Source: a virus (taxonomy: Duplodnaviria > Caudoviricetes). From it: a stretch of 61,904 nucleotides of DNA. The position numbers were made by a program, and so were the translations under genes. The stretch spans positions 1 through 61,904 of the IMG/VR virus record IMGVR_UViG_3300042556_002563. One strand, 5' to 3'. Positions 6,579 to 61,507 of the stretch are shown piece after piece; position 1 is the stretch's first letter, and each line of letters opens with the position of its first letter. A model generated the notes under the pieces. That model was given only the letters and a program-made list of their open reading frames with translations, was not told where the DNA came from and searched no databases.

Positions 6579-6961
6579 TACAGGTCAGCCCCCAAGGCAG
6601 TCACATGCGTGGCCTGCGAGACTGACGTTGTGACTCGCACCGACCAAGCGGCAGACGGCAGAATCAGGTTGTTGTAGGTGTTTGATACGCGAGTCTGCTG
6701 CACAGTCGCCGAGCCAGTTGCGGCAGCCACGGTGATCTCATCAAAGTGCCAGTGCGTGCTGCCGTCATAAAGAAAAATACGCACAATAGCCGCAGCACTT
6801 GTTGCGGCGCACTTTACGACGATTTCAGCAATACGTGTGCCAGTAGCGGCGCCAGTGATTAAAGTGCCCGCGCTAGTTGGCGCCGTATAGCTACCGTCAG
6901 CTGTAGCAATAGAAACAGCGCCAATTCTGGGGGTTACTGCAAATTGCGGGGCTGTTGCCAT
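6578..6961 (-). CDS. Small beta-rich virion protein (127 aa)
   Basis: ATG start, coupled to the downstream gene; Ala/Thr-rich beta-strand pattern. Confidence 0.65.
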   Translation of the reverse strand: MATAPQFAVTPRIGAVSIATADGSYTAPTSAGTLITGAATGTRIAEIVVKCAATSAAAIVRIFLYDGSTHWHFDEITVAAATGSATVQQTRVSNTYNNLILPSAAWSVRVTTSVSQATHVTALGADL

Positions 6962-6970
6962 GATTGTTCC

Positions 6971-7261
6971 TTAACGAAAATTGGCCCAGAGATAAAGATT
7001 CATAGCAGCTTGTGCGTTGCCAGATAACCGCGCGTCAGCCACAGTGCCGCTAATGATATCTTCTCCCGCATGAGTATGCGAGCTAGCTGCGGCTCCAATA
7101 TCGCTGGCTGTAAGCGCGTCTACACCGCCAGTAGCGTGCGTCGAGGCGTGCGCCGCTACGCCGCTGGAAAAATCCCACGTTGTACCAGACCATGTATACA
7201 CACGCCCGTTTTGAGTGCTTTGCTGCCCTGTCGTTGGGCTGGACGGGAATGAAAGTGGCAT
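6971..7261 (-). CDS. Short fibre/adaptor protein with MPxSFP..GQ..TxNGR N-terminal module
   Basis: N-terminal module shared with 10216, 10404 and 12240 genes; HASTHATGGxD motif. Confidence 0.7.
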   Translation of the reverse strand: MPLSFPSSPTTGQQSTQNGRVYTWSGTTWDFSSGVAAHASTHATGGVDALTASDIGAAASSHTHAGEDIISGTVADARLSGNAQAAMNLYLWANFR

Positions 7262-39017: not shown

Positions 39018-39233
39018 TTACTCAAGCGTAATGCCGTGCGAGTTACGAATCATGTCACGTATTTCTTGCAGGTGACGGTCGATCTCCGCTGGCAGATCAC
39101 CGTGCTTAATCAACCCGCGGCAATGCTGATCGATTTCCCAAATCAACATTTTCGCGGCCTGACCTTCGACCGCCGCAGTAAATTCAGACTGCTCTTCGGG
39201 CAACGTAAATGACAACGTGGCTTTAGGCATCAA
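39018..39233 (-). CDS. Small phage protein (MKATL.F.LPEE family)
   Basis: KATLSFTLPEEQ...R..IKH motif common in phages. Confidence 0.65.
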   Translation of the reverse strand: MMPKATLSFTLPEEQSEFTAAVEGQAAKMLIWEIDQHCRGLIKHGDLPAEIDRHLQEIRDMIRNSHGITLE

Positions 39234-40603
39234 TCTACCTGCCCCAGCGGGTCAAAGTCGGTCGGGATAATCTCGCTGACAGCGCTCGACGCAGCCATCA
39301 GCTCAGGAATGTCCGTCATTTCCTTGTTCTTCAGCTCGGCCATGACCTGCTCCCGGAACTTGCGGGCCGGATCACAGACGGGGTAGTCATTCACGCCCAG
39401 AATGCCGTGCAGAAGCCCCATGACCTTCTTGTTGCTCTCCAGCGCCATCGACGCCTCAACCTCTGACAGCGCGTCCTGCTTGGAGATACCCAGCGCATTG
39501 GAAAACACCAACGGCACGTCAGAGTTCTTGGTGCCGTGCTTGTATTCCAAATCGCACACCTGCCTGAGCAGCGCCGGCAGCTTGGGATCCGTGCCCGGCT
39601 GCGGTTTCTTGTCCGCGGCCTGCAAATCCATCAGCAACCGAATCGTGGCCGTGTGCCAATCCCAGTAGTGGTACTGCTTGTTGCTGTACGTCTCTTCGCC
39701 GTTGGCATCCCGGCCGGCAACAATGTCGTTGTACCACATGAGGTTAACAACGATCTTACGACCCGGAGCGCCAAGATTGTTCTTGGTCGCGGCAATCCGC
39801 ACAGACTGGCCCTCATACCGCCCGCCAGTGATGTTCTTAGCCGAAGCCTTGGACATATCCAGAATCAACGTCGGGTAATAGTCCAGCGAAGCGCCACCCG
39901 GAGCGTACTTCTTGGGCGGACCGAATCCCATGGAGTTGATTTCCTCCTTGAGATGATTCGTGGCTACCAACGCGATTGGATAGTGCCGCAGCGTGGGCAC
40001 CAGCGCCGTCCGCATGAAGTCAGACAGATTCCGCGCCAGATAAGGATGCCCAGCAGCCGCGTGCCCCTCGTCAGCCACCTTCTCGACGCGCCGGTCAACC
40101 TCGACCGCCGAGATCGAGTCCACGCCAATACAAATAGGAATAACCCTGTCAGGGGCATTCTCGGCGTCAATCTGCTTGTGAATAGCTTGGCAGAAGCCCA
40201 TGTACTTCTTCTGCCACTCTTCCACACTCGCCGCCGTCGTGACCTTGGTGCGGGCCATGTATTGCGGGTTGTGCCCAAAAATACCCGACATCATCGTCGG
40301 GCTGCCCTTGTTCTCTGTGTCAATCATGATCGCGCCGCCGCCATACAGGTGGAACCAGCGCATGATCTCAATCAAGAACGCAGACTTGCCGGCGCTGAAC
40401 TCGCCGCGAAGCTGCGTAAACCGGCTCAGCGGAAAGATATTCGCCTGCAACAGATATCGTGCAGCCAATGACGGCAGCGGCAGGCCGATCAGCGGATCAT
40501 TATCCTCCGCTGTGGCCTTGAGCACTTCCGTAAACATCGGGTGCTCGCCGTTGCGGGCTTGGATATCAACTGATTCGTTTGCTTCCTTACGTTTCCTGCC
40601 CAT
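39230..40603 (-). CDS. recA: RecA/UvsX-like recombinase
   Basis: Walker A GEFSAGKS, IDTE, Walker B IGVDS, ATNH, PGG..L.YY, KN. Confidence 0.85.
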   Translation of the reverse strand: MGRKRKEANESVDIQARNGEHPMFTEVLKATAEDNDPLIGLPLPSLAARYLLQANIFPLSRFTQLRGEFSAGKSAFLIEIMRWFHLYGGGAIMIDTENKGSPTMMSGIFGHNPQYMARTKVTTAASVEEWQKKYMGFCQAIHKQIDAENAPDRVIPICIGVDSISAVEVDRRVEKVADEGHAAAGHPYLARNLSDFMRTALVPTLRHYPIALVATNHLKEEINSMGFGPPKKYAPGGASLDYYPTLILDMSKASAKNITGGRYEGQSVRIAATKNNLGAPGRKIVVNLMWYNDIVAGRDANGEETYSNKQYHYWDWHTATIRLLMDLQAADKKPQPGTDPKLPALLRQVCDLEYKHGTKNSDVPLVFSNALGISKQDALSEVEASMALESNKKVMGLLHGILGVNDYPVCDPARKFREQVMAELKNKEMTDIPELMAASSAVSEIIPTDFDPLGQVD

Positions 40604-47844: not shown

Positions 47845-49503
47845 TCAGGCAAGACCGTTGTCTTCAGCAAATCGATCTACCGGCATAATACGCCGGCGGG
47901 GCTCTCTCGCTGCTGTGGGAGCCACGGGCGCAATATCACCGCGCCGCAGAATCTTTCTGGCTGTTTCAGACGCTGTGTATTCTTCATTCACCAGATGCAC
48001 GTCTACGATGTTGTCGTCCATGCGGACAAGTCCGCGGCGGCTGACAGGCACGTAAGCCCGAATCTTAGAGTAGTGAATCGTTGAAACTTTTGTTTCCTGA
48101 TCGCGCGTATTGATGCACAGACACGCGTGAACATTCTCAGCAAACGACTTTGAACCGGCCGCGTCAAGATGCCCGGTGTACTTGTACGCCGGCTTGCTCT
48201 TAATATCCGCGCCGGCCAACTGATGGGCTAGCATAACAGTAGCGCCGTACGGCACCGCTATCTGAGTCCGCAGATCGTCGGGCACGTTCTTGATTGGCCG
48301 TGCGAGGTTCTCTACATACCGCCCGCGCTTATCGTTTGCCAACTCGCGCTCTACCAAAATGCTCGCATGGTCAACAAACACAGCGCCAATATCCATGTTG
48401 CGCGTTTCTGCCACCTTCTCGATCACAGCGGCAATCTCGGGGACACCGCCGTCACCGTGGTTACCAGTCTCGATGTTCTTAGAAAAGTCCAGAAACAAGA
48501 AATGCTGATTGAACCACTCCAGCATGGCGTTCCACCGATCCCGCTCACACAGCATGATCTCGCCGTTACGGTTCTCGGGCAATTCGCGCTCGTACGGCTT
48601 CAGCGTGTCACGCGTAGAAAAATGCTCCCAAAACCGGGCATTCTGCGTGAACAGATTCCGGTCGATATGCGACGCTGCAGACCAGAATAAACCGTTCATC
48701 TTCTCTGCGCCGTCTTCGTAGCAGATATACACAGAGAGTTTGTTTTCTCCGCGAACGAAAAACTGCTGGGCCATTCGCACCGCCGCAGATGCCATCATTG
48801 TCGTCTTGCCGCCCTCGAACGGACCCAAGATGCCAATCAGGTCGCCTTTGCGAAATCCGCCAAGATACTGGTCAATCCACGGAATCGTGGTCGGTTCGGG
48901 CGGCGGCGCCAGTGCGATTTCGGCGCCAAACTCGGGCGCGTGGGCGGCATTGACAATCTCGCGACCCAAATACTGGATCGACTTAGCTTTCTTTGCGAAG
49001 TCCTGCAGCCGGGCTTCGAAATCAACGACAACCGTATCTCTGGCCGAATTAACTGTGTGCTGCAGCTCGTGCTTCAGGATGCGGACATTTACAAAACGCC
49101 GCAGAATTGTTTCCTGATATTGCCGCTCCGCTCGTTTTGCTGCATTCTCAAGCGCTGGCGCCGCAAAAGAGTCTGCGATAAACGCAACCAGCTCTTCCAG
49201 CTCCTCAGCGCGCATCGTCGGAATCGCGTCATTCGCGTACCATGCCCGTAACTGCGTCACGAGCGCTATTTCATTTACTGCGCCATGCCGCTGGTACAGC
49301 CCGACAGCCGCGGCATACAAATAGATAAACGGCGATTCTTTGCCGCCGCCTAAAAAATGCGTTGGCGCCACACCAACGTTTTGGGCATCTTTCAGCAATC
49401 CGGGATTACACAGGAATCCGCGAACCATCTCTTTGATTTCGGCATAAGTCAGAACATCATCATGATGATTTTGTGTTTCGCGCGCTCCGTCGCCACTAGC
49501 CAT
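47845..49503 (-). CDS. DnaB-like (SF4) replicative helicase
   Basis: GGFRKGDL...GPFEGGKTT, YE, FVDH, AHQL, K.R arginine finger. Confidence 0.85.
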   Translation of the reverse strand: MASGDGARETQNHHDDVLTYAEIKEMVRGFLCNPGLLKDAQNVGVAPTHFLGGGKESPFIYLYAAAVGLYQRHGAVNEIALVTQLRAWYANDAIPTMRAEELEELVAFIADSFAAPALENAAKRAERQYQETILRRFVNVRILKHELQHTVNSARDTVVVDFEARLQDFAKKAKSIQYLGREIVNAAHAPEFGAEIALAPPPEPTTIPWIDQYLGGFRKGDLIGILGPFEGGKTTMMASAAVRMAQQFFVRGENKLSVYICYEDGAEKMNGLFWSAASHIDRNLFTQNARFWEHFSTRDTLKPYERELPENRNGEIMLCERDRWNAMLEWFNQHFLFLDFSKNIETGNHGDGGVPEIAAVIEKVAETRNMDIGAVFVDHASILVERELANDKRGRYVENLARPIKNVPDDLRTQIAVPYGATVMLAHQLAGADIKSKPAYKYTGHLDAAGSKSFAENVHACLCINTRDQETKVSTIHYSKIRAYVPVSRRGLVRMDDNIVDVHLVNEEYTASETARKILRRGDIAPVAPTAAREPRRRIMPVDRFAEDNGLA

Positions 49504-50257
49504 TGTAAGTCCTCCAATGCTCACGAATTAGGCGGACAGCGGCGCGTAATTCATCTGTGACCCACCATGCTGTGTCCTCATCTTTAATAACTTGATCGTA
49601 TAGCGGCTGATTAGCCTCATAATCTAACGACGCGCGCCACAGATAGCGCTCAATCGCGCTGTCGCAGTTGGCGGCGGCGGCCCACGCGTGCCGAAAAAAC
49701 GGCGGCGCGGACACGTAGCTCTCGTCGCAGAGCACGTAGAGCGTCTGGTCCTCTTTCGAGAACTTGAACACGTTCGTGCTTTTGTACCGCGAATTGATCG
49801 TATGCCCGGCCACAGTTGCTTTATGAGCAATCGTTCGGGGCGCTTCCGCGCAGTACAGGTTGTATATTTTTTGCGATGAGCCGCCGTATAACATGGAAGG
49901 CCGCATCGTCGGCATTTTGTCGAGCCCGCCGGCAAGCGTGATTTCTGCTGCCGGAGAGAAGTGAGCGTACACCCACATTCCGGGATTTGCGCTCACCATC
50001 TCGACGGCTCTGGCTGCTTTGGCCCACACAGACGAATGCCGTACGCCAAAGTTATCTTTCCCGCCGTCCCACGCTGGCCGTCTTAACGTGTGCGCCCGGG
50101 CATCCCAATCAACCGCGGCCTCGTTTAAATAAATAAACTGATACCGCATGTACGCGGCAAGTTGTTCCGTATTCAGCTGGGTGTGCCAATCATGCGCTAG
50201 CAACGCATCATGTGGCTCCACCGCCTCCGCTATTGCGCCAACTGCGTTGTGCGTCAT
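49496..50257 (-). CDS. Hypothetical protein between two helicases
   Basis: ORF overlapping both neighbours; start re-assigned to ATG 50257. Confidence 0.6.
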   Translation of the reverse strand: MTHNAVGAIAEAVEPHDALLAHDWHTQLNTEQLAAYMRYQFIYLNEAAVDWDARAHTLRRPAWDGGKDNFGVRHSSVWAKAARAVEMVSANPGMWVYAHFSPAAEITLAGGLDKMPTMRPSMLYGGSSQKIYNLYCAEAPRTIAHKATVAGHTINSRYKSTNVFKFSKEDQTLYVLCDESYVSAPPFFRHAWAAAANCDSAIERYLWRASLDYEANQPLYDQVIKDEDTAWWVTDELRAAVRLIREHWRTYNG

Positions 50258-51746
50258 GCCAATTTTGTTCCCATCCAAGGAGTTTATAGCTGTTGCGCCG
50301 ACCCAAACTCTTGCGGTAAAAAGTCGGGTCGAATGTGTCCATGCAATCCAAAACTTCGCCAAACTCTTTACGTGTTCCGTCCGGCGCTGTGTAAATACGA
50401 CTCACGCGCCCCGGACCCTGCACGTCTACGATATCGCTATCTCGGTCATCAGCGCGAACCAGCACGCTTAACTGCTCAAAGTCCACGCCGGTTGCCCACA
50501 CGTCCGTAGCAATTACACGTTTTAATGTGCCGGCCTCAAACGCAGACCGCATATCATGTTTCTGAAACTCATTTAACGGCTTGTAGTCCTCCGGTAAGAG
50601 TTTCTTCTTTCTGTACGCCGAGCAGTCGTAAGGCGCCATGTTGCCGTATACAAGACTGAATTCAGGCAACAACGAGCCAAGGTGCACCGCGTGCTCAATC
50701 GTTTCTACAAGTATCAGAATCTGATGCGATTCAGGGTACTCGCGCACCGCGTCGGCTATGATGCCGTTTCGCTCACGGTTTGTCCAGATGCCGTATCGTT
50801 TTCTCGCGACACGGTTGCCGTAGCGCTCCGCTGGGTTCGAACGCAGCCGCATAGGCAGCCAATTCACCTTGACCGGCACGACCAGCCCAAGATCCACAGC
50901 GTTCTGGTAGGTCAGCTCAAACACCATTGGGCCAAACAGCGGCTCAAGCACGGCATGGGCGTTGTCCATACGCGCGTAGGGTGTGGCGCTCATGCCATAG
51001 TTCCTACTGTGCCTATACCGCGCAGCCAACGCTGTCGAAAAATTGACCGTGGCCAGCTGATGCACTTCGTCAGCAAACAGAAAGTCTGCGTCGCCATCGG
51101 AGTGCGCCAAACTGCCAGCGGTAATCACCGTGACGCGTTCCCACTGCTTCCATCCGTCGCCTACGCGACCGACCTTCGGCAGCAGCCGTTTAAGGCTGCG
51201 TACAATACGCTCGGCTACGTCTACGCTCTTTGTAACAACGTGGATTTTGGCTTCAGGAAACAAAAGCGCTGCTGCCCCAATCAAAGTCGTCTTACCGAAA
51301 CCGGTGACGGCTTTGATAATTCCGCACGGGGCGCGAGCAATCGTCTGTAAACATTCTTCCTGCCGCGGTCGAAATTCAATTCGGCCGGCAAGATTCTCCC
51401 ATTGCGGCACATAGCAGTTCGGCCGCTTGCGTTCGACTGTGTTTTCACGCAACGACGTTTGGCAACCAAGTTTGCGCAATCTGTTTACCATGCGTGCCAA
51501 GTAACCGCTCAGCACAATCACGTGACCATTTTCAACACGAAACAGTTTGTACTCTTTCGTCTGAAAAAACATGCGCTGGCCCGTGATCGGATCTCTACGC
51601 GCTTGCCCGTGCACCTGCTCGATATGCGAATAGCGCAAATCGTGTGTAAGCTTTTTAACCAGCTCGTCAGGTAAAGGTGCGTTAGCTGGCCCCGTCAGCG
51701 TTAATACATTGCCGGCACGATTAATTACTACAGGTTGCGGGGCCAT
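50208..51746 (-). CDS. SF2 DExH helicase (UvsW/XPB-like)
   Basis: RPRQ, TGFGKT, DEVH, SATP, TGVD, Q..GR..R. Confidence 0.9.
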   Translation of the reverse strand: MAPQPVVINRAGNVLTLTGPANAPLPDELVKKLTHDLRYSHIEQVHGQARRDPITGQRMFFQTKEYKLFRVENGHVIVLSGYLARMVNRLRKLGCQTSLRENTVERKRPNCYVPQWENLAGRIEFRPRQEECLQTIARAPCGIIKAVTGFGKTTLIGAAALLFPEAKIHVVTKSVDVAERIVRSLKRLLPKVGRVGDGWKQWERVTVITAGSLAHSDGDADFLFADEVHQLATVNFSTALAARYRHSRNYGMSATPYARMDNAHAVLEPLFGPMVFELTYQNAVDLGLVVPVKVNWLPMRLRSNPAERYGNRVARKRYGIWTNRERNGIIADAVREYPESHQILILVETIEHAVHLGSLLPEFSLVYGNMAPYDCSAYRKKKLLPEDYKPLNEFQKHDMRSAFEAGTLKRVIATDVWATGVDFEQLSVLVRADDRDSDIVDVQGPGRVSRIYTAPDGTRKEFGEVLDCMDTFDPTFYRKSLGRRNSYKLLGWEQNWHDAQRSWRNSGGGGAT

Positions 51747-51747
51747 G

Positions 51748-52242
51748 CTAGTTGTCGTCCCCGGGCCCGGCGACTGGTTCGACTGAAATGACTTCAAATG
51801 TCCCATACTTTTCCTGCGCGTTATTGAACGGGGAAAACCCGCGATACTTGCCAACGAGCGTCAGCAAGTGCACAAAGTCCGCTAATGGTATCTCATCCGG
51901 CAAGACAGCAGACAAGACCACCGTGTCGCCGGGCCGAAAAGCTTCGTGGAGCGCAAAATGACTACGCGTGTTTTCGCCCTGCGGCTGCACCACGGTCCGC
52001 CGCCAGTCATTGCGTGGCTCGCCGACTACTACCGGACACCAGTCAATTTTTTTGACTTCAGCGTGATGCTTATTCGCAATCTTTGCCGCGTACCGCATGC
52101 ACGACAGCCACGCTGAAGGCAAAAACATCACGCGCTGACTGGGGTCGCGATCAAAGCAGAAAATAACCTGTCCGTGTTTACGTTTTTTTGCCGCGCCCAT
52201 ACATACGCGGTTGAAACGCAGAGTAACCGTGATTTCTCGCAT
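51748..52242 (-). CDS. Stand-alone RAMP (Cas7-group-like) protein
   Basis: ITVTLRF....G; FDRD...VMFLPSAW...MR.AA; HEAF.PG; LL..VG.YRG.......YGTFEV (degenerate G-loop). Confidence 0.6.
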   Translation of the reverse strand: MREITVTLRFNRVCMGAAKKRKHGQVIFCFDRDPSQRVMFLPSAWLSCMRYAAKIANKHHAEVKKIDWCPVVVGEPRNDWRRTVVQPQGENTRSHFALHEAFRPGDTVVLSAVLPDEIPLADFVHLLTLVGKYRGFSPFNNAQEKYGTFEVISVEPVAGPGDDN

Positions 52243-52248
52243 ACTACA

Positions 52249-53184
52249 CTATTTTTTACTCATGTGCTCGTCGTACGCTGCGCATTCTGCCGGTGTTTTA
52301 AAAAACATGTTCGGTACAAATAGGCCGTCTTTTACACCAGCGCGTGTCTCCAACGCGGCCAGCCAGTTATACCGCAGATATCTTATAAACGCTTGCGACG
52401 CGCGCAAATCACCTTTGGCCCCGCCCCCAGCGGCGTTATACACACGATACAGAAAGTTCGCTGGCGCCTGCGCGTCCACGGCCTCTGGCAGTTGCGTTTT
52501 CCACGTAGACAACACCGTCTGACAACGAAACTCTCGGGCCTTTGTTACAAGACACGCCGGTTGCGACACACGCGCCTGTGTTTGCGGCGTAAGCCCCAGA
52601 TATAGCTCCAGTTTTGCCGCGCGATCAGGCGAACGGCGATCTACGTACCAGCGCGGATCAATTATCGTTGTTAGCAACTTGGCTGCGTCTGGCTCCGCCA
52701 CCGTAGGTATAAACAACAATGCTTTGCGCGCTGGGTGAATGTGAAAGTACGTTTCCGCGGCATCATCGAAAATGAACTGATTGCGCAACATTCGCGCCAG
52801 CATGGCGTACGTCGGATAATCGTGCAACGACAACGTGTGCCACCCGCCGGCTGCTGCCGCGATATCCACGCTGCGCATGCGTGACAGCACAATACTGGGC
52901 TCATGCAATTCAGCCGCTTCGTGCAGAATATTGGGCCCGGCAATTTCTACCGAGCGCAACTCCTTATTATTGCGCTTTAAATACAGCGCGCTAATAAGCT
53001 CTGCGTTTTGCGCCATACCGATAACGCGCACAACAGTGCCTGTGCCGTGAATTACTGGCGCCAGCAAAAACTCGTCAACCAACTGGTTAGAATTAACCGG
53101 CGGCCCAATACCAACCGAGTACCACACCCGTTTATCGGTGGCGGTATACAGTTTAATGATATTTTCATCGGGTGTGTTGACCAT
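52249..53184 (-). CDS. Degenerate IS110-transposase/Nop-fold (Tas-like) protein
   Basis: HP...L.FIP.V....AAKLL..I.DP.WY......KL..YLGL.P matches the IS110 Transposase_20 helix-hairpin-helix region; the N-terminus has RuvC-like strand order but no DEDD acids. Confidence 0.6.
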   Translation of the reverse strand: MVNTPDENIIKLYTATDKRVWYSVGIGPPVNSNQLVDEFLLAPVIHGTGTVVRVIGMAQNAELISALYLKRNNKELRSVEIAGPNILHEAAELHEPSIVLSRMRSVDIAAAAGGWHTLSLHDYPTYAMLARMLRNQFIFDDAAETYFHIHPARKALLFIPTVAEPDAAKLLTTIIDPRWYVDRRSPDRAAKLELYLGLTPQTQARVSQPACLVTKAREFRCQTVLSTWKTQLPEAVDAQAPANFLYRVYNAAGGGAKGDLRASQAFIRYLRYNWLAALETRAGVKDGLFVPNMFFKTPAECAAYDEHMSKK

Positions 53185-55321
53185 GTCGCAGCTCCGGCGC
53201 TTCAAGTTGTATGGTAGATTCGAACAAGTGCGACAAATTCGACGCGTGTGTGACTAACAAACACTGTAACCCCTTTGCGGTAGACAAGTCACGCAATTTC
53301 TCAAGGACTGGCGCTAACGCTTGAATACGCGGCTGATCCAAAGAAGCAGTCGGCTCGTCCAGCGCGAGCAATCCGATTTCTTCTGCAAACATGGCGTTGA
53401 CGGCGACGCGAAACGCAAGAGCCAAGACGGTCTTTTGCCCAATCGATAAACGCTGAGCGACTTGCCGTCGTCCGTCAAAGAATTCTGCGACGAACGTAGG
53501 TGTTCCATCCGTAGCCACCTTTACAACAAAATTTACGCAAAAAATCTGTAGCAACTCATTAATAGCTGACTCAAGCCGCTGAAGGTTTCGCTGCGCTACA
53601 AGCCGCGGGGCGTTTTTGAGCGCTTCCCTAGCTGACTCCGCAAGCCCGGTCCATTTACGCAGTTGTGCCGCCGTCTGCTCTTGCTGCTGTGCGAGATCAC
53701 GCTGCTCCTCGATACGCTTCATTTCAAACATCAGCTGCGTGCGCTGCTCTGACAACTCGTTCCGGTTCTTCAACAGCTGCTGCCGCGTCTGCAAGTTTGT
53801 CTGGGCTAAATGCGCGTCGGACTGGGTAACAACAGCAGTTTTGATACTTTCTTCCAGCTGCTCGCGCCGGTCTCGCAACCCGGACAGCACGCCCGCCAGT
53901 TTGGCTTTGTTCTCGCGGGCTTGTTGTGCCAGAGGCATGATTTCCTGCTTTACCTGCTGGAACTGCTCGTAGTCGCCCACGGCTTGTTGCAGCTCATCTT
54001 CAGACGCTGCCGGCGGCGCAACAACAGTCAAATCACGCTCAGAGTCATCCAACCGCTTTTCTTGGCCTGCCAGCTCTTCTTCTTTCTTCAACCACTGCGC
54101 ATGCGCCTGCTCGGCATCCTTCTTTTCCATCCAGCTCGCGTCCAGCAAGATGTGCTGCCCGCTGAGTTTTGTCAGAATATCGTGCTGTTCTTTAACCTGC
54201 GCTGTTAGCTGTGACGTTGGCGTATGACACGTCGGGCACTCGGCAATGCCTTCGGCTGTAAACAGCTTGACAAACTTCTCAGCTTCTTTGATCTGCCGCT
54301 CATTATTTTCTAGCTGCCGGTACAACTGCTCGGCTGTCTCGCCAGCCGGCTTTGGCGGTTCCGGGTTCTTCTCGCGCAACCCGGCAATATACGCCCGCTG
54401 CTCCTGAAGCTTTTCTTTCAGCTTGGCCACATGCTTGTAGCTTTCCCAGTGCCCTAGCGCCGTCCGGGCGGCAGCATACGCTTCTTCTTGCCCGTTAGCC
54501 GCTTCGGTTAACGCAACAAGATCCTCTTCATACTGCTTGCCGGCGGATACAGCCGCATCAAGCTGGGCCTGAGCGGCTGCTTCCTGCTGCGCAAGCTTCG
54601 CTAGCTCTTGCCCAGCCTTCTCGCGTTCCTCCCACTGCCGAATCGTCACTTGGTCGGCCTGCATGCTGGTAAGGAAGTCATCCAGCGTCGGGAGCTTGGC
54701 TATCTGCGCCGCTAGCTTCGCTGCGTCATGGTGCAGCTGCTCTAGCTGCGCCTGAAGCACACCCGGCGTCTGCACGACCTCCGGTATTGATATCTTTGCC
54801 AGCGCCTTGCCAATCACGTCCTGACACTTGTCCGCCTTGGCCGTGTTAAACAGCCGCTGGAAGAACTTGTCCGTGTCAGTCTGGTTGTCGTCGATAAACG
54901 AAAATATATCCGTCTGGCCAACGATGATAAACCGGCTGATAAACTTGGAGTCAACGCCCAAGAGTTTCTCAATGCCGGCCGTTACAGACTTGTCACCGCG
55001 GCCAACTTCTTTGCCGTCCACAGTCAGGATCGACTGCTCCTTCTCGGGGAGCAGATGGCGCGTCACGACAGCCATATGGCCGTTATGTTCAAACTCCAGC
55101 GTGGCGTACGACGGCTCACCCTCTTTGGCGTACTGGGACACATTGTCCGCTTTCACGCCGTAATTGGGATTCTCGCCCGTCAGCAACCATCGGATCGCGC
55201 CAAATAGACTGCTCTTCCCAGAACCGTTCTCACCCAGAATAGCAACGAGCCCGCGAGTAAACTCACATACTCGATACCTGTGGTGCACCCAGTTCTTCAC
55301 TTCCAGCCGCAAGAGCTGCAT
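53165..55321 (-). CDS. sbcC: SbcC/Rad50-like (gp46) ABC ATPase
   Basis: GENGSGKS, Q-loop, coiled coils with a CPTC zinc hook, LSIGQ signature, LDEPT, VTH. Confidence 0.92.
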   Translation of the reverse strand: MQLLRLEVKNWVHHRYRVCEFTRGLVAILGENGSGKSSLFGAIRWLLTGENPNYGVKADNVSQYAKEGEPSYATLEFEHNGHMAVVTRHLLPEKEQSILTVDGKEVGRGDKSVTAGIEKLLGVDSKFISRFIIVGQTDIFSFIDDNQTDTDKFFQRLFNTAKADKCQDVIGKALAKISIPEVVQTPGVLQAQLEQLHHDAAKLAAQIAKLPTLDDFLTSMQADQVTIRQWEEREKAGQELAKLAQQEAAAQAQLDAAVSAGKQYEEDLVALTEAANGQEEAYAAARTALGHWESYKHVAKLKEKLQEQRAYIAGLREKNPEPPKPAGETAEQLYRQLENNERQIKEAEKFVKLFTAEGIAECPTCHTPTSQLTAQVKEQHDILTKLSGQHILLDASWMEKKDAEQAHAQWLKKEEELAGQEKRLDDSERDLTVVAPPAASEDELQQAVGDYEQFQQVKQEIMPLAQQARENKAKLAGVLSGLRDRREQLEESIKTAVVTQSDAHLAQTNLQTRQQLLKNRNELSEQRTQLMFEMKRIEEQRDLAQQQEQTAAQLRKWTGLAESAREALKNAPRLVAQRNLQRLESAINELLQIFCVNFVVKVATDGTPTFVAEFFDGRRQVAQRLSIGQKTVLALAFRVAVNAMFAEEIGLLALDEPTASLDQPRIQALAPVLEKLRDLSTAKGLQCLLVTHASNLSHLFESTIQLEAPELRHGQHTR

Positions 55322-56435
55322 CTTCAAGTTCTCCCGTCATGTACTTAGAAAACTGTACATCAAGCTCTTTACCCGCATCCTCCGCGACCAACAAGGCCGC
55401 GGCTAGTTTGTACGCCTCTGAATTTTCACCGACTAGATCCGCCAGCGCGCCCAGCAAGTCGTTCTTGGCACTGTCGCGGGTCGCTGTTTTGGAGGTACTG
55501 TATTTCTCGTTAATTGCTTCACACGCAATATTCGCGAAATCGCCTACCGCTGTCATCAGCCGTAAATACGCGTCCGGCAGCTGCTTATCGAACTTGATTC
55601 GAACCAGCGGCTTGTTGATGTTCGCCGGCAGCGTATCGTCCAGCTGGTCATTGATATCTTTGAGCAGCTGGCCGGCACACAGGGAGTCTAGCGTGTCTTG
55701 GTCTTTGACAACGTAGTTCAGGAACCTGCGCGTCCTAAGCTGAATCGGCGTAAAGACAATCTCACCAGTCGTGGGGATACGGCCAATTACGAAGAAGAAC
55801 TTATCAGGGCTCTCGCTCATGTCTTGCATGCAGGTCGAGCCGGGAGACAGCATCGTAACTGTTTTTCCTTGCGCGTTGGCGCTGGTAACTGTTTTGGTGA
55901 CATGAAAATCACCATTGAGCACAGTCGTCACGTGGTAAACATCTGTAAGCTCACAGTCAGTGCGGCCGAGATTCCCCATGAAGTCTTTCCAGACCTGATG
56001 GGTGATCAAGATATCTGTATCCTGCGGTACGCGCGTAAACGCGTCTTGAATGTCGCCGCGGGGCAGCCAGTCAAAGCCAGCAACCTTGACGCCATTAATA
56101 TCAAAACTGGCTTCGTGCATGTAAATTGGCCAGTCATGCGCGCTCAACCACGGGGCGTTACGGTCGAACTCGTGGTTACCCTGAATGTAGTACACGGGCA
56201 CACCGGCATCCCGCATTCGGGACAAACCTTCGAAGAGCCGGGCAATCGGGCGCGCAGAGTTGCTTTTCTTCTCTAATACGTCGCCGCCAAGTATGAGCGG
56301 CAGACGGCACGCGATGCAGTAATCGACAATCTGCTCAAAGCTGTAGTACGCGTCGCCGTAGATCCCCGGACGACTCGACCACGCGCCGTCCTCAAGATGA
56401 AGGTCGGCGCAGAAAACAAACAAGGGGGTCGACAC
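55263..56435 (-). CDS. sbcD: SbcD/Mre11-like (gp47) metallophosphoesterase nuclease
   Basis: DLH, GD, GNHE, THQ, GDFH, PGS motifs. Confidence 0.9.
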   Translation of the reverse strand: MSTPLFVFCADLHLEDGAWSSRPGIYGDAYYSFEQIVDYCIACRLPLILGGDVLEKKSNSARPIARLFEGLSRMRDAGVPVYYIQGNHEFDRNAPWLSAHDWPIYMHEASFDINGVKVAGFDWLPRGDIQDAFTRVPQDTDILITHQVWKDFMGNLGRTDCELTDVYHVTTVLNGDFHVTKTVTSANAQGKTVTMLSPGSTCMQDMSESPDKFFFVIGRIPTTGEIVFTPIQLRTRRFLNYVVKDQDTLDSLCAGQLLKDINDQLDDTLPANINKPLVRIKFDKQLPDAYLRLMTAVGDFANIACEAINEKYSTSKTATRDSAKNDLLGALADLVGENSEAYKLAAALLVAEDAGKELDVQFSKYMTGELEDAALAAGSEELGAPQVSSM

Positions 56436-56444
56436 AAATAACTC

Positions 56445-57101
56445 CTAGTCCTCGTCATCGTCGGTATCGTTGCCGTAAAACCAATTTAAGAAATCATCCT
56501 CGTCTTCTTCGTCGTCGTACGCATTCAACTCGTCGTCATACTGCCCGTCTAGCGACTGCGTAAAATAATCGGCAAAATCTTCTTTGTCATTTGGCGGTTG
56601 CCAAAACTTGTTTTTGATATCAAGCGTTGTTTCGTTCGACAGCAGTTTTTTCAGAGACTGCAAATACGTCGATAACACGTCTGGCAGTGCGCCGTGATTG
56701 AGATTAAACGCGCTTTTTATTGTTTTGCCCCACGTCGCCGGTTCGCCGCTAAACCAGCCGTCGTCTTTTTTGATTTGGCCCGCGCCCGTTGTTTTGACGA
56801 TCTTGAAAAACGACAAGGTGAACAAATCGGCAAGATCGTCAAGATTTGGAATTGGCGGCAGTTGTTTTTCCCTGAATTTATGCTCCGCCGCTAGCGCGTG
56901 CAATGTGCTGTCAAATTCCGCATGCATTTCACGCAAACTGCGCGCCATTCTTGCAGCCGTGACAACTGATTTGACATTAGCTTCAGTTGGTGCCATCAAG
57001 TGAAAAATCGATTGCAGCATGTCGTAGTCGCGATGCATTGCGGCTACGTAAACGCGGATGAAATGCTTTTCAACCGTCGACATGTTGTGCGGATCAAGCA
57101 T
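56445..57101 (-). CDS. Hypothetical protein with highly acidic C-terminus
   Basis: D/E-rich last ~45 aa; start uncertain. Confidence 0.6.
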   Translation of the reverse strand: MLDPHNMSTVEKHFIRVYVAAMHRDYDMLQSIFHLMAPTEANVKSVVTAARMARSLREMHAEFDSTLHALAAEHKFREKQLPPIPNLDDLADLFTLSFFKIVKTTGAGQIKKDDGWFSGEPATWGKTIKSAFNLNHGALPDVLSTYLQSLKKLLSNETTLDIKNKFWQPPNDKEDFADYFTQSLDGQYDDELNAYDDEEDEDDFLNWFYGNDTDDDED

Positions 57102-57124
57102 GCGGCACCAACGCAAAAAGTTAC

Positions 57125-58125: not shown

Positions 58126-58196
58126 ATGCCCGACTAGGATTCGAACCTAGACAAAGAAAATCAAAATTTCTTGTGCTACCGTTACACCATCGGGCA
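58126..58196 (-). tRNA. tRNA-Gln(UUG), CCA not encoded
   Basis: TGCCCGA/TCGGGCA acceptor, D arm GGTGTAACGGTAGCAC, anticodon arm AGAAA-TTTTGAT-TTTCT, T arm CTAGG-TTCGAAT-CCTAG. Confidence 0.93.
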
Positions 58197-58224
58197 ACGC
58201 GCTGCATCCTTGCATATACGATTT

Positions 58225-58368
58225 CTGATACGCGGTTTAGGATCCGTCTTGAAACCCCTATCAGCTTCGCAGTTACAAACCCACTCGCGACTTGGGTGTC
58301 GGACCGCCGAATGATTGGCAGCGGCTTTTGGAGACCGGGAACAGGGGCGCCGACACGCCCGTCGTGAA
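58225..58368. ncRNA. Candidate structured non-coding RNA upstream of the tRNA
   Basis: Largest non-coding gap in the window; two stem-loops at 58225-58264 and 58284-58368. Confidence 0.4.
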
Positions 58369-58386: not shown

Positions 58387-58950
58387 CTACACCAGCGACA
58401 CAAATTTTTTGGCAAGCGCAATGGATGCAAGGTTATCGTTCTCAGCGTTGTGCGATACGCCAGTGTCGATATTGAATACCTTGCGTAAATTGTCGAGGTT
58501 GCAACCGCCCTGAAACTTGTTCGCGGCGGCAAACAACCGTGCAGATGCGCAGGTGTCCAGTGCTGGATTGGTGAAGTACTCACCCCATTTTTCTTCCGGC
58601 AGCAAGTAGTGCTGCAAGAATTTTACGTCAAAAGGCACATTGTGCCCCGCAGGTACAAGACGCCGATGGCCAGTGACCGTCAGCGCCTCTTTGATGAACA
58701 GCGTAAAAAGCTCAGCTGCTTCTTGAACTGAAAAGCCATTGGCGTCGTTATCCGACAAGTCAATCTGATTGACTTCCATGGCTTTTGGGTGGACCGTGTA
58801 ATTTGCGTGCTTTACCTTGACGTACATGCCCGGATCGAACTCGTGGATCCGAATGATATCAAAGTGCCTGTCGGTCAAAATTGCCGACACGGTGAGCAGA
58901 CTGTATTGCGGTGTTAGCCCACCCGTTTCAGTGTCAAAAAACAAATACAC
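58387..58950 (-). CDS. DEDDh 3'-5' exonuclease (DnaQ/RNase T-like)
   Basis: FFDTETGG, GHNVPFD, LDT, HNAEND. Confidence 0.9.
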   Translation of the reverse strand: MYLFFDTETGGLTPQYSLLTVSAILTDRHFDIIRIHEFDPGMYVKVKHANYTVHPKAMEVNQIDLSDNDANGFSVQEAAELFTLFIKEALTVTGHRRLVPAGHNVPFDVKFLQHYLLPEEKWGEYFTNPALDTCASARLFAAANKFQGGCNLDNLRKVFNIDTGVSHNAENDNLASIALAKKFVSLV

Positions 58951-59220: not shown

Positions 59221-60306
59221 TTAATACATCACAGTGAGCGCTACAGCGCAATGAGGCAGCGGGAAAAAGTACACGCCGCGTGCTGAAAAATATCGTGGGT
59301 GGTCCAACCGCATAAGTGTGGTTTCGCCGCGCATAAGCCGGGCGCCAACGTAGGGCCCGGTCTTGGACGGTAACGCATCCAATACAACCGTCATGTCTGT
59401 GTCTGGTACCGCAAAACGCACTGTTGCGCCAAGCGGGCCGGTCGTGTGCGCCGTAATATGCTCTTTGTCGCGAGCGTAGTCAAGCACTTGCGCAAGCGAT
59501 TTGACGTTTTCTTTATCCGCTCTGACATGATGCACAATTTGCGTATACACGCCCAGCGCGCCGCCCTGTGTAATTTGCTGCTCTAGCTCTTCAGCTAATA
59601 TGCCGGCCCATTTCAATTCTTCTGCTACACGCAATGTGTATAGCAACAGCGCCGGGCACACATTGGCGTAGTCGTCTGCGTCTTCTGTGACCTTGAGCGT
59701 AAATGCCGCGTCATTCTTGGGAATCGACACATACTCGCCAGTTTCGAGAATCGTGGACCATACGCTGATCCCGCTATCAAACGCTAAACCGCGCAACGCC
59801 GGCCCGGGCTCGCCAGAGGCCAGCGTGCCGCGAACCGTAACCAAACCAGCACCAAACGTGCTAGCTAGCTTGCTGGAAAACACAGCCGGCTTAAAAACTC
59901 GGCCAAGCATGCGTTCTGTGTAGATCTCAGGCGGTGCTGGTTTGGCCGCGACAGGCGCTTTACGCGACGCGACCTCGTCCAGAATACTATCGAGCAGCAC
60001 GTCAGAGGCGTGCGCCGGATCGCTCTCAACCAGCTCAGAAAATACCACCAAAGCTTCTAGCGCTACGTTTGGATCTTTGTACGCCAACAGCTTCTTGGTG
60101 AACGAAAAATCAACGTTTTGCCACTCGATATTCATAGCCGACTCGGCTATGTACTCCAACACGCTATACAGCATGTTGTCACCCAGCTGGCTGAATATGC
60201 GGAATGTCTCTAGTAGCGCAGCTGTTGCACGCAGTTTGTCTTTTGTCGTAGTTGTCTTGGGAAACTTATCAAGGAGTGTGGTCAAATCAACTTTGTTCGA
60301 TGTCAT
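59221..60306 (-). CDS. Hypothetical protein (361 aa)
   Basis: Long ORF. Confidence 0.65.
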   Translation of the reverse strand: MTSNKVDLTTLLDKFPKTTTTKDKLRATAALLETFRIFSQLGDNMLYSVLEYIAESAMNIEWQNVDFSFTKKLLAYKDPNVALEALVVFSELVESDPAHASDVLLDSILDEVASRKAPVAAKPAPPEIYTERMLGRVFKPAVFSSKLASTFGAGLVTVRGTLASGEPGPALRGLAFDSGISVWSTILETGEYVSIPKNDAAFTLKVTEDADDYANVCPALLLYTLRVAEELKWAGILAEELEQQITQGGALGVYTQIVHHVRADKENVKSLAQVLDYARDKEHITAHTTGPLGATVRFAVPDTDMTVVLDALPSKTGPYVGARLMRGETTLMRLDHPRYFSARGVYFFPLPHCAVALTVMY

Positions 60307-61507
60307 AAAATGTTTTTCCGCTAAATATTGCGTCGCATGCGTTGATTAAGTTGTAAACAGTGCCGCGGTACAGTCCGGGCAAAATATGCTTTTTAGCGCT
60401 AAGCAACCGCAAATCTTCGCATTCGTTGTCTGAATACTGCTGGGCCCGGGAATCAATCGAAACAAACGTGACGTCTGGTACCGACGCGTCGCCTGTTCCA
60501 GCATTAGCTGCTTGCCGCAGCAATACGCTACTGCGCCGAATAACGTCGCCAGTGGCTATGACTAACCCGCCACCCCGCGCACGCATAGTGTTCACGAGTT
60601 CGGTAAAAATAAGAAAATCAGCGTACGTTGCGGCGCCGACAGCCGCACCAATCTCTGCGCCACGGGCTACCGGGTGCAGATGATTCGGCAGCTCGCCGAT
60701 TTCGACATGCACCGTTGCCGGCACACCAAGCGAGTGCGCTGCGTAAAACAAACTACGGCCACGCTGGCTGTGTTTCGGGTCAAACCCCCAGCGCCCAACT
60801 GCTTCGCCGTACCCTATGCCTTGCTGCGCCGCTAACTGGGCAATTCGATTTAAATCAACCGTGGCAGCTGCCGCGGCAAAATCTTCAGCCAAACCACTGC
60901 CGGTTGTTGCTACAGCTTTGACGTACTTTTTTTGCAGCATTGTTCCAACAAGCAAACCCGCCCCAGCTGCAATGGCGTCCGGGCCAATAAAAAACAATAC
61001 CGGCATGTCGTGGCTACAGCAGCGATGAATAGCCGCTGCAACCTCCGTGTATTTATTTACAACACTGTCATTCTTTTTACGCGGCATTGTCAGCGGAATA
61101 AATTGCGCCACCTCAAACTCCTTTGCGGCGGGATGCGAGTGCATCGTATTAAATACAGGAAAAGCGCTGTGTATTTTATCTGGCAATACAAGCGTGCCCG
61201 GTTTTGGATCTGATGTGTCGCCGTAGTCGAGCATGGAGCCGTTGCCCCACAACAGCCAATCTGCGCGGACTGACGAGTTAGTCAGAATCTCCGCGACAAC
61301 TTTGACCGTGACTGTGGTGTCACCGTCAAAAATCTGACGCGCCCGTTTCAGGCGCAGATTGAACTGTTTCGCAAAACGACTAACGTCGCCGGCAAACAGA
61401 TGCTGACAAACAGCGTAAACTCTGAACCGCAATAGTTCGTCAGAGTACGTCAGAAACTGCCGGTAGTGCCGCAAGCGCTTTTTTGGCTTTTCTGGCTGCT
61501 TTGGCAT
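60287..61507 (-). CDS. XRE/cI-type HTH fused to a deoxyhypusine-synthase-like domain
   Basis: N-terminal ...V.ADWLLWG.G.M; C-terminal PV...G...I..G, VATTG.G..D, SLFYAA..LGVPATVHV.IG....H.HP...GA..G...Y.DFLIF. Confidence 0.6.
   Translation of the reverse strand: MPKQPEKPKKRLRHYRQFLTYSDELLRFRVYAVCQHLFAGDVSRFAKQFNLRLKRARQIFDGDTTVTVKVVAEILTNSSVRADWLLWGNGSMLDYGDTSDPKPGTLVLPDKIHSAFPVFNTMHSHPAAKEFEVAQFIPLTMPRKKNDSVVNKYTEVAAAIHRCCSHDMPVLFFIGPDAIAAGAGLLVGTMLQKKYVKAVATTGSGLAEDFAAAAATVDLNRIAQLAAQQGIGYGEAVGRWGFDPKHSQRGRSLFYAAHSLGVPATVHVEIGELPNHLHPVARGAEIGAAVGAATYADFLIFTELVNTMRARGGGLVIATGDVIRRSSVLLRQAANAGTGDASVPDVTFVSIDSRAQQYSDNECEDLRLLSAKKHILPGLYRGTVYNLINACDAIFSGKTFYDIEQS

Follow-up and report, generated by a model that had tools for sequence, protein, structure and literature searches.

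TasR/IS110-like and minimal Cas7-like proteins predicted beside the SbcCD and helicase genes of uncultured lake phages

The viral sequence IMGVR_UViG_3300042556_002563, a 61.9-kilobase (kb) fragment of an uncultured lake-water virus genome (positions 1 to 61,904, hereafter the window; CheckV completeness about 30%), carries a replication/recombination operon at 43.5-57.1 kb. The operon encodes, in order, a 223-amino acid (aa) protein, SbcD, SbcC, two proteins that we call ORF-A and ORF-B (ORF, open reading frame), an XPB-like helicase of superfamily 2 (SF2), a 288-aa protein, a DnaB-like helicase, a primase and PolA. Like nearly all genes of the window, these lie on the minus strand. Predicted structures place ORF-A in the TasR/IS110 fold family and ORF-B among the Cas7-like RAMPs. 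Among the sequencing runs listed for the virus are 24 DNA runs from lakes or other fresh water and no RNA run. We find that ORF-A keeps the same place behind sbcC across a large group of uncultured lake phages with genomes of ~150-225 kb, that the catalytic residues of its fold relatives are not conserved in it, and that no array was recognised with either gene in the sequences searched.

The SbcCD pair consists of a gene encoding a calcineurin-like phosphoesterase followed by a gene encoding an SMC-type ATPase with split Walker motifs (Pfam, PHROGs), and the nearest solved sequences to the SF2 helicase are those of archaeal XPBII (6p4f, 5tnu; E 1.5e-8). The genes are tightly packed (Table 1). 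If sbcC begins at the ATG at 55321, it overlaps sbcD by ~59 nucleotides (nt); the end of sbcC overlaps the start of ORF-A by 20 nt, ORF-A and ORF-B are 6 nt apart, and a helicase start at the ATG at 51746 leaves a gap of 1 nt after ORF-B. The ATG at 53184 taken for ORF-A is the start common to relatives, the longest ORF beginning at 53205. The longest possible helicase ORF overlaps ORF-B by 107 nt. This long start, or a frameshift fusion, was rejected in view of the ATG 1 nt past the ORF-B stop, and the low synonymous entropy in the overlap is due to the conservation of ORF-B itself. The junctions thus confirm the five co-oriented genes with overlaps or gaps of at most 6 nt described in the initial annotation of this locus, and their order is kept in relatives. 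Both ORF-A and ORF-B are basic proteins, whereas SbcD (isoelectric point (pI) 4.7) and SbcC (pI 5.7) are acidic.

Table 1. Positions in the window of the operon genes under study and of other features
Feature	Position	Strand	Length and basis
ORF-A	52249-53184	-	311 aa, pI 8.9; predicted RuvC-like N-terminal domain (~1-115) and Nop-type helical domain (~120-311) in the AlphaFold2 (AF2) model
ORF-B	51748-52242	-	164 aa, pI 9.0; predicted minimal Cas7/Csm3-like RAMP made of a single RRM, with thumb hairpin and G-rich loop (AF2 model)
sbcC, Rad50-like SMC ATPase	53165-55321 (alternative start 55327)	-	~718 aa; SMC_N, E 2e-18 (residues 10-707 of the 720-aa protein); Pfam AAA_23; phrog_77 'SbcC-like', E 4.6e-37
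sbcD, Mre11-like nuclease	55263-56435	-	390 aa; Pfam Metallophos, E 1.5e-7; phrog_100 'SbcD-like', E 3e-3
XPB-like SF2 helicase	50208-51746	-	512 aa with the ATG at 51746 as start; Pfam ResIII, Helicase_C; phrog_16, E 5e-30
223-aa acidic protein, before sbcD	56445-57116	-	Conserved operon member; no family match
288-aa protein, after the helicase	49496-50362	-	Conserved operon member; no family match; recognisable in some distant relatives only
RecA/UvsX-like recombinase	39230-40603	-	PF00154, E 3e-7
DEDDh exonuclease	58387-58950	-	RNase_T, E 3e-8
406-aa protein	60287-61507	-	Weak deoxyhypusine synthase match, E 6e-3, under the Pfam cut-off
tRNA-Gln	58126-58196	-	Rfam
Structured RNA, ~165 nt	58197-58363	-	Just 5' of tRNA-Gln, in a 190-nt gap; no Rfam family match

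Predicted folds and catalytic residues

The AF2 model of ORF-A, built from a 57-sequence alignment, has a predicted local distance difference test score (pLDDT) of 89 and a predicted template modelling score (pTM) of 0.88. Its best match in VIA-align is TaTasR (9mty_B; Z 10.9, root-mean-square deviation (rmsd) 5.2, 235 residues aligned over 8-309), and TasH (21kl_A) and the IS110 recombinase ISCro4 (9t56_A) are matched at Z 8.5 over residues 123-295 and at Z 7.0, respectively. RuvX, RuvC, YqgF and the RuvC domains of Cas12 and TnpB match residues 1-112 only, at Z 5-7. Foldseek matches are weak (best E 9.7e-3 with TM 0.43, none at E<=1e-3), and rows 1-11 are all TasR, IS621 or ISCro4, the latter two occupying rows 3-11. 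The IS110/Nop fold proposed earlier for ORF-A is therefore borne out by both aligners on the predicted structure, and by its model ORF-A is an array-less member of the TasR/IS110 fold family.

Sequence profiles were less informative. ORF-A has no match in Pfam, PHROGs, NCBIfam or PADLOC, and a sequence-profile search of the PDB was empty. Among 72 family representatives, each less than 50% identical to the ORF-A of the window, none matches Nop (PF01798) and, of the IS110 profiles (PF01548, PF02371), two match Transposase_20 weakly (E 0.028 and weaker). With hhalign, ORF-A residues 139-204 align to positions 177-235 of Thermus thermophilus IS1000A, its IS110 motif region, at a weak E of 0.013; in this alignment the motif L..I.DPRW..D..P.R..L..YLGL.P falls on the IS110 stretch directly preceding the catalytic serine. 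DUF4123, to which the nearest bacterial clusters in the ESM Atlas point (score 0.91-0.93), was rejected because none of the 72 members matches it in Pfam (E<=10) and the fold searches disagree.

Across the same 72 representatives, the sole column of the RuvC-like domain with at least 70% acidic residues is residue 6, and at S207, the position after GL.P in IS110 enzymes, a serine is kept in 14. With neither a set of conserved acidic residues nor a conserved IS110 serine, ORF-A can apparently act neither as a RuvC nuclease nor as a serine recombinase. Conservation in the family is highest in the C-terminal helices (LRASQ, W274, E300, A303). Helices within residues 123-251 of the model are 4-13 residues long and the longest helix spans 255-278.

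ORF-B was modelled from a 57-sequence alignment at a pLDDT of 82 and a pTM of 0.77. Foldseek returned 62 PDB matches at E<=1e-3 (best 1.3e-5); the matches listed are all chains of CRISPR effectors, mainly Csm3 and type VII Cas7 and also Cmr. The first 21 rows in VIA-align are CRISPR RAMPs (Z 7.3-10.9; best non-RAMP row Z 7.3), among which Csm3, Cmr4 and Cas7 RAMPs are closest (Z 9.3-10.9), including Csm3 6ae2_B (Z 9.6, rmsd 3.4, 133 residues aligned) and type VII Cas7 8yhd_A (Z 9.6). Of three BFVD matches at E<=1e-3, one is named a RAMP superfamily protein. Foldseek and VIA-align thus agree with the earlier assignment of ORF-B to the Cas7/Csm3-type RAMPs, and as modelled ORF-B is a minimal Cas7-like RAMP. 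Residues H99, E100, G131, Y133, G135, S137 and G147 are among those invariant in the family, and its C-terminal motif G.Y.G.SP...YG.F.V has its G.Y.G.SP part before the last strand.

As with ORF-A, this likeness is confined to structure. ORF-B has no match in Pfam, PHROGs, NCBIfam or PADLOC, none of the 57 family members matches Pfam or NCBIfam, the TIGR02582 profile finds nothing in the contig and PF03787 gives no signal for ORF-B. Alignment of the ORF-B family with a Thermus/Meiothermus Csm3 alignment by hhalign reached a probability of 0.2%, a PDB sequence-profile search gave chance coatomer matches only (E 0.27), and the nearest ESM Atlas clusters are viral proteins without names.

D31 and D33 of ORF-B lie in the sequence F-D-R-D-P, which by eye resembles the D-L-D-N-P loop of TtCsm3 that holds D34. 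We take D34 to be the catalytic aspartate of TtCsm3, in the loop before helix 1 (a D34A mutant is in the literature). The D33 column varies among 10 distant family members (D, D, E, N, D, A, D, A, T and G in some order), and hhalign against Csm3 or Cmr4 gave nothing usable. A Csm3-type catalytic aspartate was therefore rejected as a family-wide feature. The loss of catalytic residues proposed for both proteins holds for ORF-A, in which neither the RuvC acidic residues nor the IS110 serine are conserved, and has to be qualified for ORF-B, since D33 is present in the protein of the window.

Distribution of the cassette in related phages

Three samples of viral contigs were compared: 42 loci found through ORF-B, 56 found through a diverse ORF-A alignment (20 of them on new contigs) and 9 more. 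They include near-duplicate loci (L061/L063, L092-L094, L108/L109, L112/L113). In the close clade, defined by the loci found through ORF-B, ORF-A, ORF-B and the helicase occur in that order in 42/42, with sbcC upstream of ORF-A in 41; the remaining locus ends at the contig edge. On the new contigs of the second sample sbcC, ORF-A and the helicase follow one another in 20/20 and ORF-B is present in 10. The third sample has sbcC, ORF-A and the helicase in eight of nine loci, five of these eight with ORF-B. ORF-A thus directly follows sbcC in 69/71 viral contigs overall, usually with overlapping or abutting stop and start, and the helicase comes after ORF-B or ORF-A in every assessable locus. Relatives also keep sbcD upstream of sbcC, and the DnaB-primase-PolA operon surrounds the cassette in all assessable loci. 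No multi-copy ORF-A, nor one with non-coding ends, was seen among the sampled loci.

This gene order is not a matter of chance, being kept in 42/42 close-clade and 28/29 further loci, and the synteny expected of related phages holds for sbcC, ORF-A and the helicase. The pairing of the two scaffolds, which the initial annotation had placed at the centre of the module, stands in the close clade and fails beyond it: ORF-B occurs in 15 of the 28 assessable loci found through ORF-A, and whole-record searches returned no homologue from three genomes of 92-100% completeness in which sbcC, ORF-A and the helicase are retained (the same search matched both positive-control genomes). As ORF-B is missing from about half of the distant phages with ORF-A, the two-scaffold arrangement is lineage-specific and does not belong to the module's core. 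What is stable is the pairing of sbcC with ORF-A, followed by the XPB-like helicase, and ORF-B is an add-on.

The ORF-A family comprises 833 clusters (50% identity) at E<=1e-3 and 362 at E<=1e-30. Within the close clade, ORF-B (60-93% identity) and ORF-A (48-82%) are conserved to degrees similar to those of PolA (62-90%) and sbcC (46-82%). In a tree of ORF-A, obtained by a quick method, midpoint-rooted and with long branches, lineages lacking ORF-B are basal except for two that are nested in the ORF-B-bearing clade. This topology tentatively suggests that ORF-B was inserted into an older sbcC/ORF-A/helicase cassette and lost again at least once afterwards. INPHARED yielded no cultured relative: the 6.2-kb region has no DNA match there, and tblastn gave no match for ORF-A, ORF-B or the helicase (E<=1e-10) or for a distant ORF-A.

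Some loci depart from the common arrangement. The helicase of five relatives (L004, L013, L025, L026 and L028) is 887-919 aa long as opposed to ~512-548, owing to an in-frame insertion of ~340 aa (at ~10.4-13.05 kb in the locus) that looks like a putative intein. Three relatives have small extra genes between ORF-A and ORF-B (L027:9741-9992, L028:8258-9995 and L029:8908-10013): one encodes an 83-aa hydrophobic protein, another has ORFs of 189, 270 and 120 aa, and a third has ORFs of 147 and 119 aa, which indicates that the pair tolerates separation. Only one sampled locus has another setting: on a 10-kb viral contig (L115), a truncated fragment with weak likeness to ORF-A (6854-7210; hidden Markov model E 6e-13) lies downstream of a T7-type terminase and a holin.

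Searches for arrays and guide RNAs

The operon of the window has no cas genes and no CRISPR array, as first described. Apart from collagen-type coding repeats, no tandem or interspersed array was found in the 62 kb, although degenerate stem-loop units may escape such a scan, which had no TIGR-specific detector, and Rfam recognises only tRNA-Gln. In codon alignments of 36-37 relatives, synonymous variation is close to saturation along the whole of ORF-A and ORF-B, and suppressed windows occur in gene overlaps only: no 15-codon window inside either gene has a normalised synonymous entropy below 0.30 (means 0.82 and 0.77).

Minimal phage RAMPs of the VIPR systems polymerise on vrRNAs made of GGY/NN repeats, with 9-16 repeats per vrRNA in intergenic sequence flanking the RAMP gene (bioRxiv 10.64898/2026.04.26.720920). 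Eight successive GGYNN units were not found in the window with up to three mismatches, and its best GGYNN periodic score is 19/27, against a mean of 20.4 in shuffled sequence. With up to two mismatches the same pattern is absent from six complete ORF-B-bearing genomes, a search that may miss the 'related consensus' of the VIPR paper. The CRISPR-, TIGR- or VIPR-type array that might have been expected elsewhere was thus not seen in the window, nor a GGYNN array in these six relatives.

Real GGYNN arrays are present in two other relatives. One (L017:2323-2830, contig G016) has six units, each with a terminal T-run, directly after tRNA-Gln, and the other (G002:95808-96072, locus records L126-L135) belongs to a complete genome without ORF-B. 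Both adjoin a gene for a phrog_4652 protein (L017:3193-3897 and L126:1839-2507; E 1e-42 and 3e-12 for the two), of which there is none in the window. Homologues of phrog_4652 occur in 130 phage records, mostly Ounavirinae. In Citrobacter phage Mijalis (KY654690.2, 28075-33647; L136) the homologue is CPT_Mijalis044, annotated as a 'hypothetical protein', with two GGYNN tracts upstream and three downstream (26 pattern matches, compared with none in shuffled sequence). This is the published VIPR architecture, and the Mijalis locus therefore serves as a positive control for the GGYNN search; from the same architecture, phrog_4652 is probably Vipr. An hhalign comparison of the ORF-B family with one of the two array-adjacent phrog_4652 proteins gave a probability of 0.8%, and ORF-B has no PHROG match. 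Since the arrays of the relatives adjoin phrog_4652 and G002 has no ORF-B, ORF-B is not the partner of those arrays and a VIPR identity for it was rejected. ORF-B is a different, array-less mini-RAMP, and the phage group sporadically also carries canonical VIPR systems.

Next to tRNA-Gln in the window we observed a conserved structured RNA (Table 1). Across 17 relatives its 41 pairs in eight helices are 98.1% paired (34-48% in slid controls), and 19 pairs show compensatory changes as against 9.9 in shuffles, with none of 500 shuffles reaching 19. In one of these helices the first hairpin loop pairs with a segment further downstream, forming a pseudoknot. Single-sequence folding gives z = 0.26. 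A covariance model finds one copy in each of five close-clade genomes and none at E<=0.01 in four of five distant ones. As it is single-copy, has no variable segment and was not found in these four distant genomes, two of which have both genes, we rejected this RNA as a guide, and no evidence links it to ORF-A or ORF-B. The earlier suggestions that the two proteins form one ribonucleoprotein (RNP) or bind a guide RNA are not supported, and no candidate guide tracks them.

Interpretation and comparison with known systems

We propose that ORF-A and ORF-B may well be exapted, array-less, nucleic-acid-binding accessories of an SbcCD-helicase machine. In this view ORF-A has become a core gene that stays in place, is not mobile and is coupled in translation to rad50/sbcC, and ORF-B would be a later insertion, in one sub-lineage, between ORF-A and the XPB-like helicase. 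Both could serve as basic accessory subunits of a recombination or replication-restart machine, as opposed to programmable targeting, and could contact SbcCD or the helicase. ORF-A might hold or bend a DNA or RNA:DNA structure, such as a branched end or an R-loop, for SbcCD; the RAMP, where present, might grip single-stranded RNA or DNA and pass the strand to the helicase. RNA or RNA:DNA hybrids are plausible substrates. This proposal is supported by the agreement of two aligners on both folds with confident models, the constant place of ORF-A after sbcC, the operon setting with a DnaB-like helicase, a primase and PolA (and a RecA-like gene and a DEDDh exonuclease close by), the unconserved catalytic residues of ORF-A, the conservation of both genes at the level of core replication genes in the close clade, the dispensability of ORF-B in complete genomes, the basic character of both proteins and the lack of an array.

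Several points weigh against it. Both fold assignments come from predicted structures and find no support in sequence profiles, be it hhalign against Csm3 or the Pfam, NCBIfam, PHROGs and PADLOC searches with either ORF. All characterised Tas, IS110, Nop5/Prp31 and Cas7/Vipr members, as described in the literature on these systems, bind structured or guide RNA (PMC12045711; 10.64898/2026.09.09.750476; 10.64898/2026.04.26.720920), so that an RNA partner is the default expectation; none was identified here. With about 30% of the genome in the window, a guide locus could lie outside it, and the array scans of relatives covered one VIPR-type pattern (8 units, at most two mismatches). Xu et al. (2026; bioRxiv 10.64898/2026.09.09.750476) leave open the source of guides for the array-less TasR proteins that they describe.

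All but the first of these points lend weight to a true RNA-guided module, in which a TasR-like protein, with or without the RAMP, would load one or a few guide RNAs encoded elsewhere in the ~200-kb genome, inside coding sequence, or supplied by the host, and direct SbcCD and the helicase to the phage origin or ends, to host DNA or to competing phages. We consider such a module unlikely. Stem-loop tigRNAs may lie within coding regions at flexible positions (10.64898/2026.09.09.750476), the C-terminal helices are the best-conserved part of ORF-A, and the VIPR arrays of two relatives show that the same phage group uses RNA-guided systems. Against this, the 62 kb contain no array or repeated unit, synonymous sites are not suppressed inside either gene, the six complete ORF-B-bearing genomes lack a GGYNN array, and the nearby structured RNA does not track the genes in the wider group. 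The ORF-A model also shows no obvious long coiled coil of the kind that, as described for Tas proteins, lets the dimer read a dual spacer, and the conservation pattern is housekeeping-like. Because characterised relatives bind RNA and the array searches were limited to an incomplete genome and to pattern scans, a programmable RNP retains some probability. Its fullest form is improbable: an RNA-guided Mre11-Rad50 machine, made of a TasR-like protein, in some lineages joined by a RAMP, and a guide or scaffold RNA encoded elsewhere, that would bring SbcCD and the XPB-like helicase to defined sites for recombination-dependent replication or for the destruction of competitor DNA.

The kinship of the folds may instead be overstated, ORF-A being a RuvC/YqgF-derived junction binder with a helix-hairpin-helix-type tail that acts on DNA only and ORF-B a generic ferredoxin-like/RRM domain, with no RNA involved; we think this likewise unlikely. 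It would account for the many RNase H-like junction nucleases that match the N-terminal domain of ORF-A, the Foldseek values above the E threshold, the missing Nop and poor Transposase_20 links, the failed alignment of ORF-B with Csm3 and the DUF4123 hit of the ESM Atlas feature search. The full-length TasR match, however, lies ~4 Z above the RuvC-only matches, the C-terminal domain of ORF-A alone matches TasH, residues 139-204 align, if weakly, to the IS110 motif region, and DUF4123 finds no member of the family. For ORF-B, VIA-align lists RAMPs alone in its first 21 rows, and both the thumb hairpin and the G-rich loop are present in the model. Catalytically inactive, phage-encoded copies of defence-type folds also recall a counter-defence decoy, in which the dead TasR-like protein and the mini-RAMP would sequester CRISPR RNA (crRNA), tigRNA or vrRNA or mimic effector subunits, and VIPR-type conflicts do involve related phages. 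Genes for anti-defence tend to vary and to be accessory, whereas this pair is syntenic, coupled to sbcC and the helicase and conserved much as PolA is, and ORF-A forms a family of hundreds of clusters with a fixed position in nearly all sampled loci; a decoy is very improbable. We give the least credence to a Lamassu-like defence or exclusion cassette with ORF-A and ORF-B as sensors or effectors. The SbcC-like protein does match LmuB of PADLOC (E 1e-35), a match that stems from generic Rad50/SMC similarity, but the PHROG 'SbcC-like' profile fits equally well (Table 1), the partner is a Mre11-type Metallophos protein, every assessable locus has the cassette inside the DnaB-primase-PolA operon, and neither ORF-A, ORF-B nor the 288-aa neighbour has a PADLOC match.

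By their predicted folds, two of the main scaffolds that hold guide RNAs (Nop/IS110/Tas and RAMP/Cas7/Vipr) occur here as fixed, array-less and apparently non-catalytic core genes in a phage operon for the processing of DNA ends. If ORF-A and ORF-B act as accessories of SbcCD and the helicase without programmable guides, they would exemplify the recruitment of such scaffolds into housekeeping DNA metabolism, or possibly represent a pre-programmable state. If RNA is used, they would constitute a new way of directing Mre11-Rad50 and a helicase, and an RNA-guided machine, if true, would give the Nop/IS110 guide scaffold a third role and be the first case of a RAMP at work outside CRISPR or VIPR.

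Operons with a related logic are found in archaea, where Mre11/Rad50 genes are followed by a protein of RNase H-like fold and a helicase. The resemblance to Mre11-Rad50-HerA-NurA and XPB-Bax1 is one of operon logic only: neither NurA nor Bax1 is among the best 50 fold-search rows for either model, and ORF-A lacks nuclease residues. With the IS110 bridge-RNA recombinases (IS621, ISCro4) ORF-A shares its two-domain architecture according to Foldseek and VIA-align. It differs from them in having neither conserved DEDD acidic residues nor a conserved serine after GL.P, and in being non-mobile, found at one position and without non-coding ends to encode a bridge RNA.

ORF-B shares with the class 1 CRISPR RAMPs (Csm3, Cmr4, Cas7 and type VII Cas7) a predicted RRM core, thumb hairpin and G-rich loop. 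Unlike them, it is only 164 aa long, has no second domain and is accompanied by neither cas genes nor a CRISPR array, and its aspartate at the D34-like position of Csm3 (D33, aligned by eye) is not conserved in distant members. A full-text literature search found nothing relevant on standalone bacteriophage RAMP or Cas7 proteins. Vipr is likewise described as a phage-encoded, single-RRM minimal RAMP with a thumb and a G-loop, and some VIPR types have helicase or nuclease accessory genes (10.64898/2026.04.26.720920). The comparison with ORF-B follows that description, as no Vipr chain is among the structures matched. ORF-B in turn is flanked neither by a GGY/NN vrRNA tract nor by long intergenic regions, and shows no significant similarity to the array-linked, Vipr-type phrog_4652 proteins.

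The closest counterparts of ORF-A are the TasR proteins of the TIGR-Tas systems. TasA, TasH and TasR were defined by Faure et al. (2025; PMC12045711), who linked Tas, IS110 and box C/D Nop proteins, and Xu et al. show dead TasR and TasA to be RNA-guided repressors (10.64898/2026.09.09.750476). In its predicted fold ORF-A, like TasR, combines a RuvC-like N-terminal domain with a Nop-type C-terminal domain (best match TaTasR, 9MTY), and PateTasR and CsTasR, as described in the same preprint, also have an inactive RuvC site. ORF-A differs from them in that no TIGR array or tigRNA was found with it, in having no Pfam Nop match and no obvious long coiled coil in its model, and in lying at a fixed place, behind sbcC, within a replication/recombination operon in which a RAMP is often its neighbour. 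By description, it resembles most the divergent, array-less TasR branch that Xu et al. report in dense viral genomes that lack intergenic space (10.64898/2026.09.09.750476). That branch has thus already been flagged, and the main text of the preprint makes no mention of RAMP, Cas7, Csm3, SbcC, Rad50 or a helicase. The present loci show the phyletic pattern of ORF-B, the VIPR positive control and the canonical VIPR arrays that this phage group carries beside another RAMP family. They also give a context to the question of array-less TasR proteins raised by those authors: after sbcC, before an XPB-like helicase and often beside a mini-RAMP.

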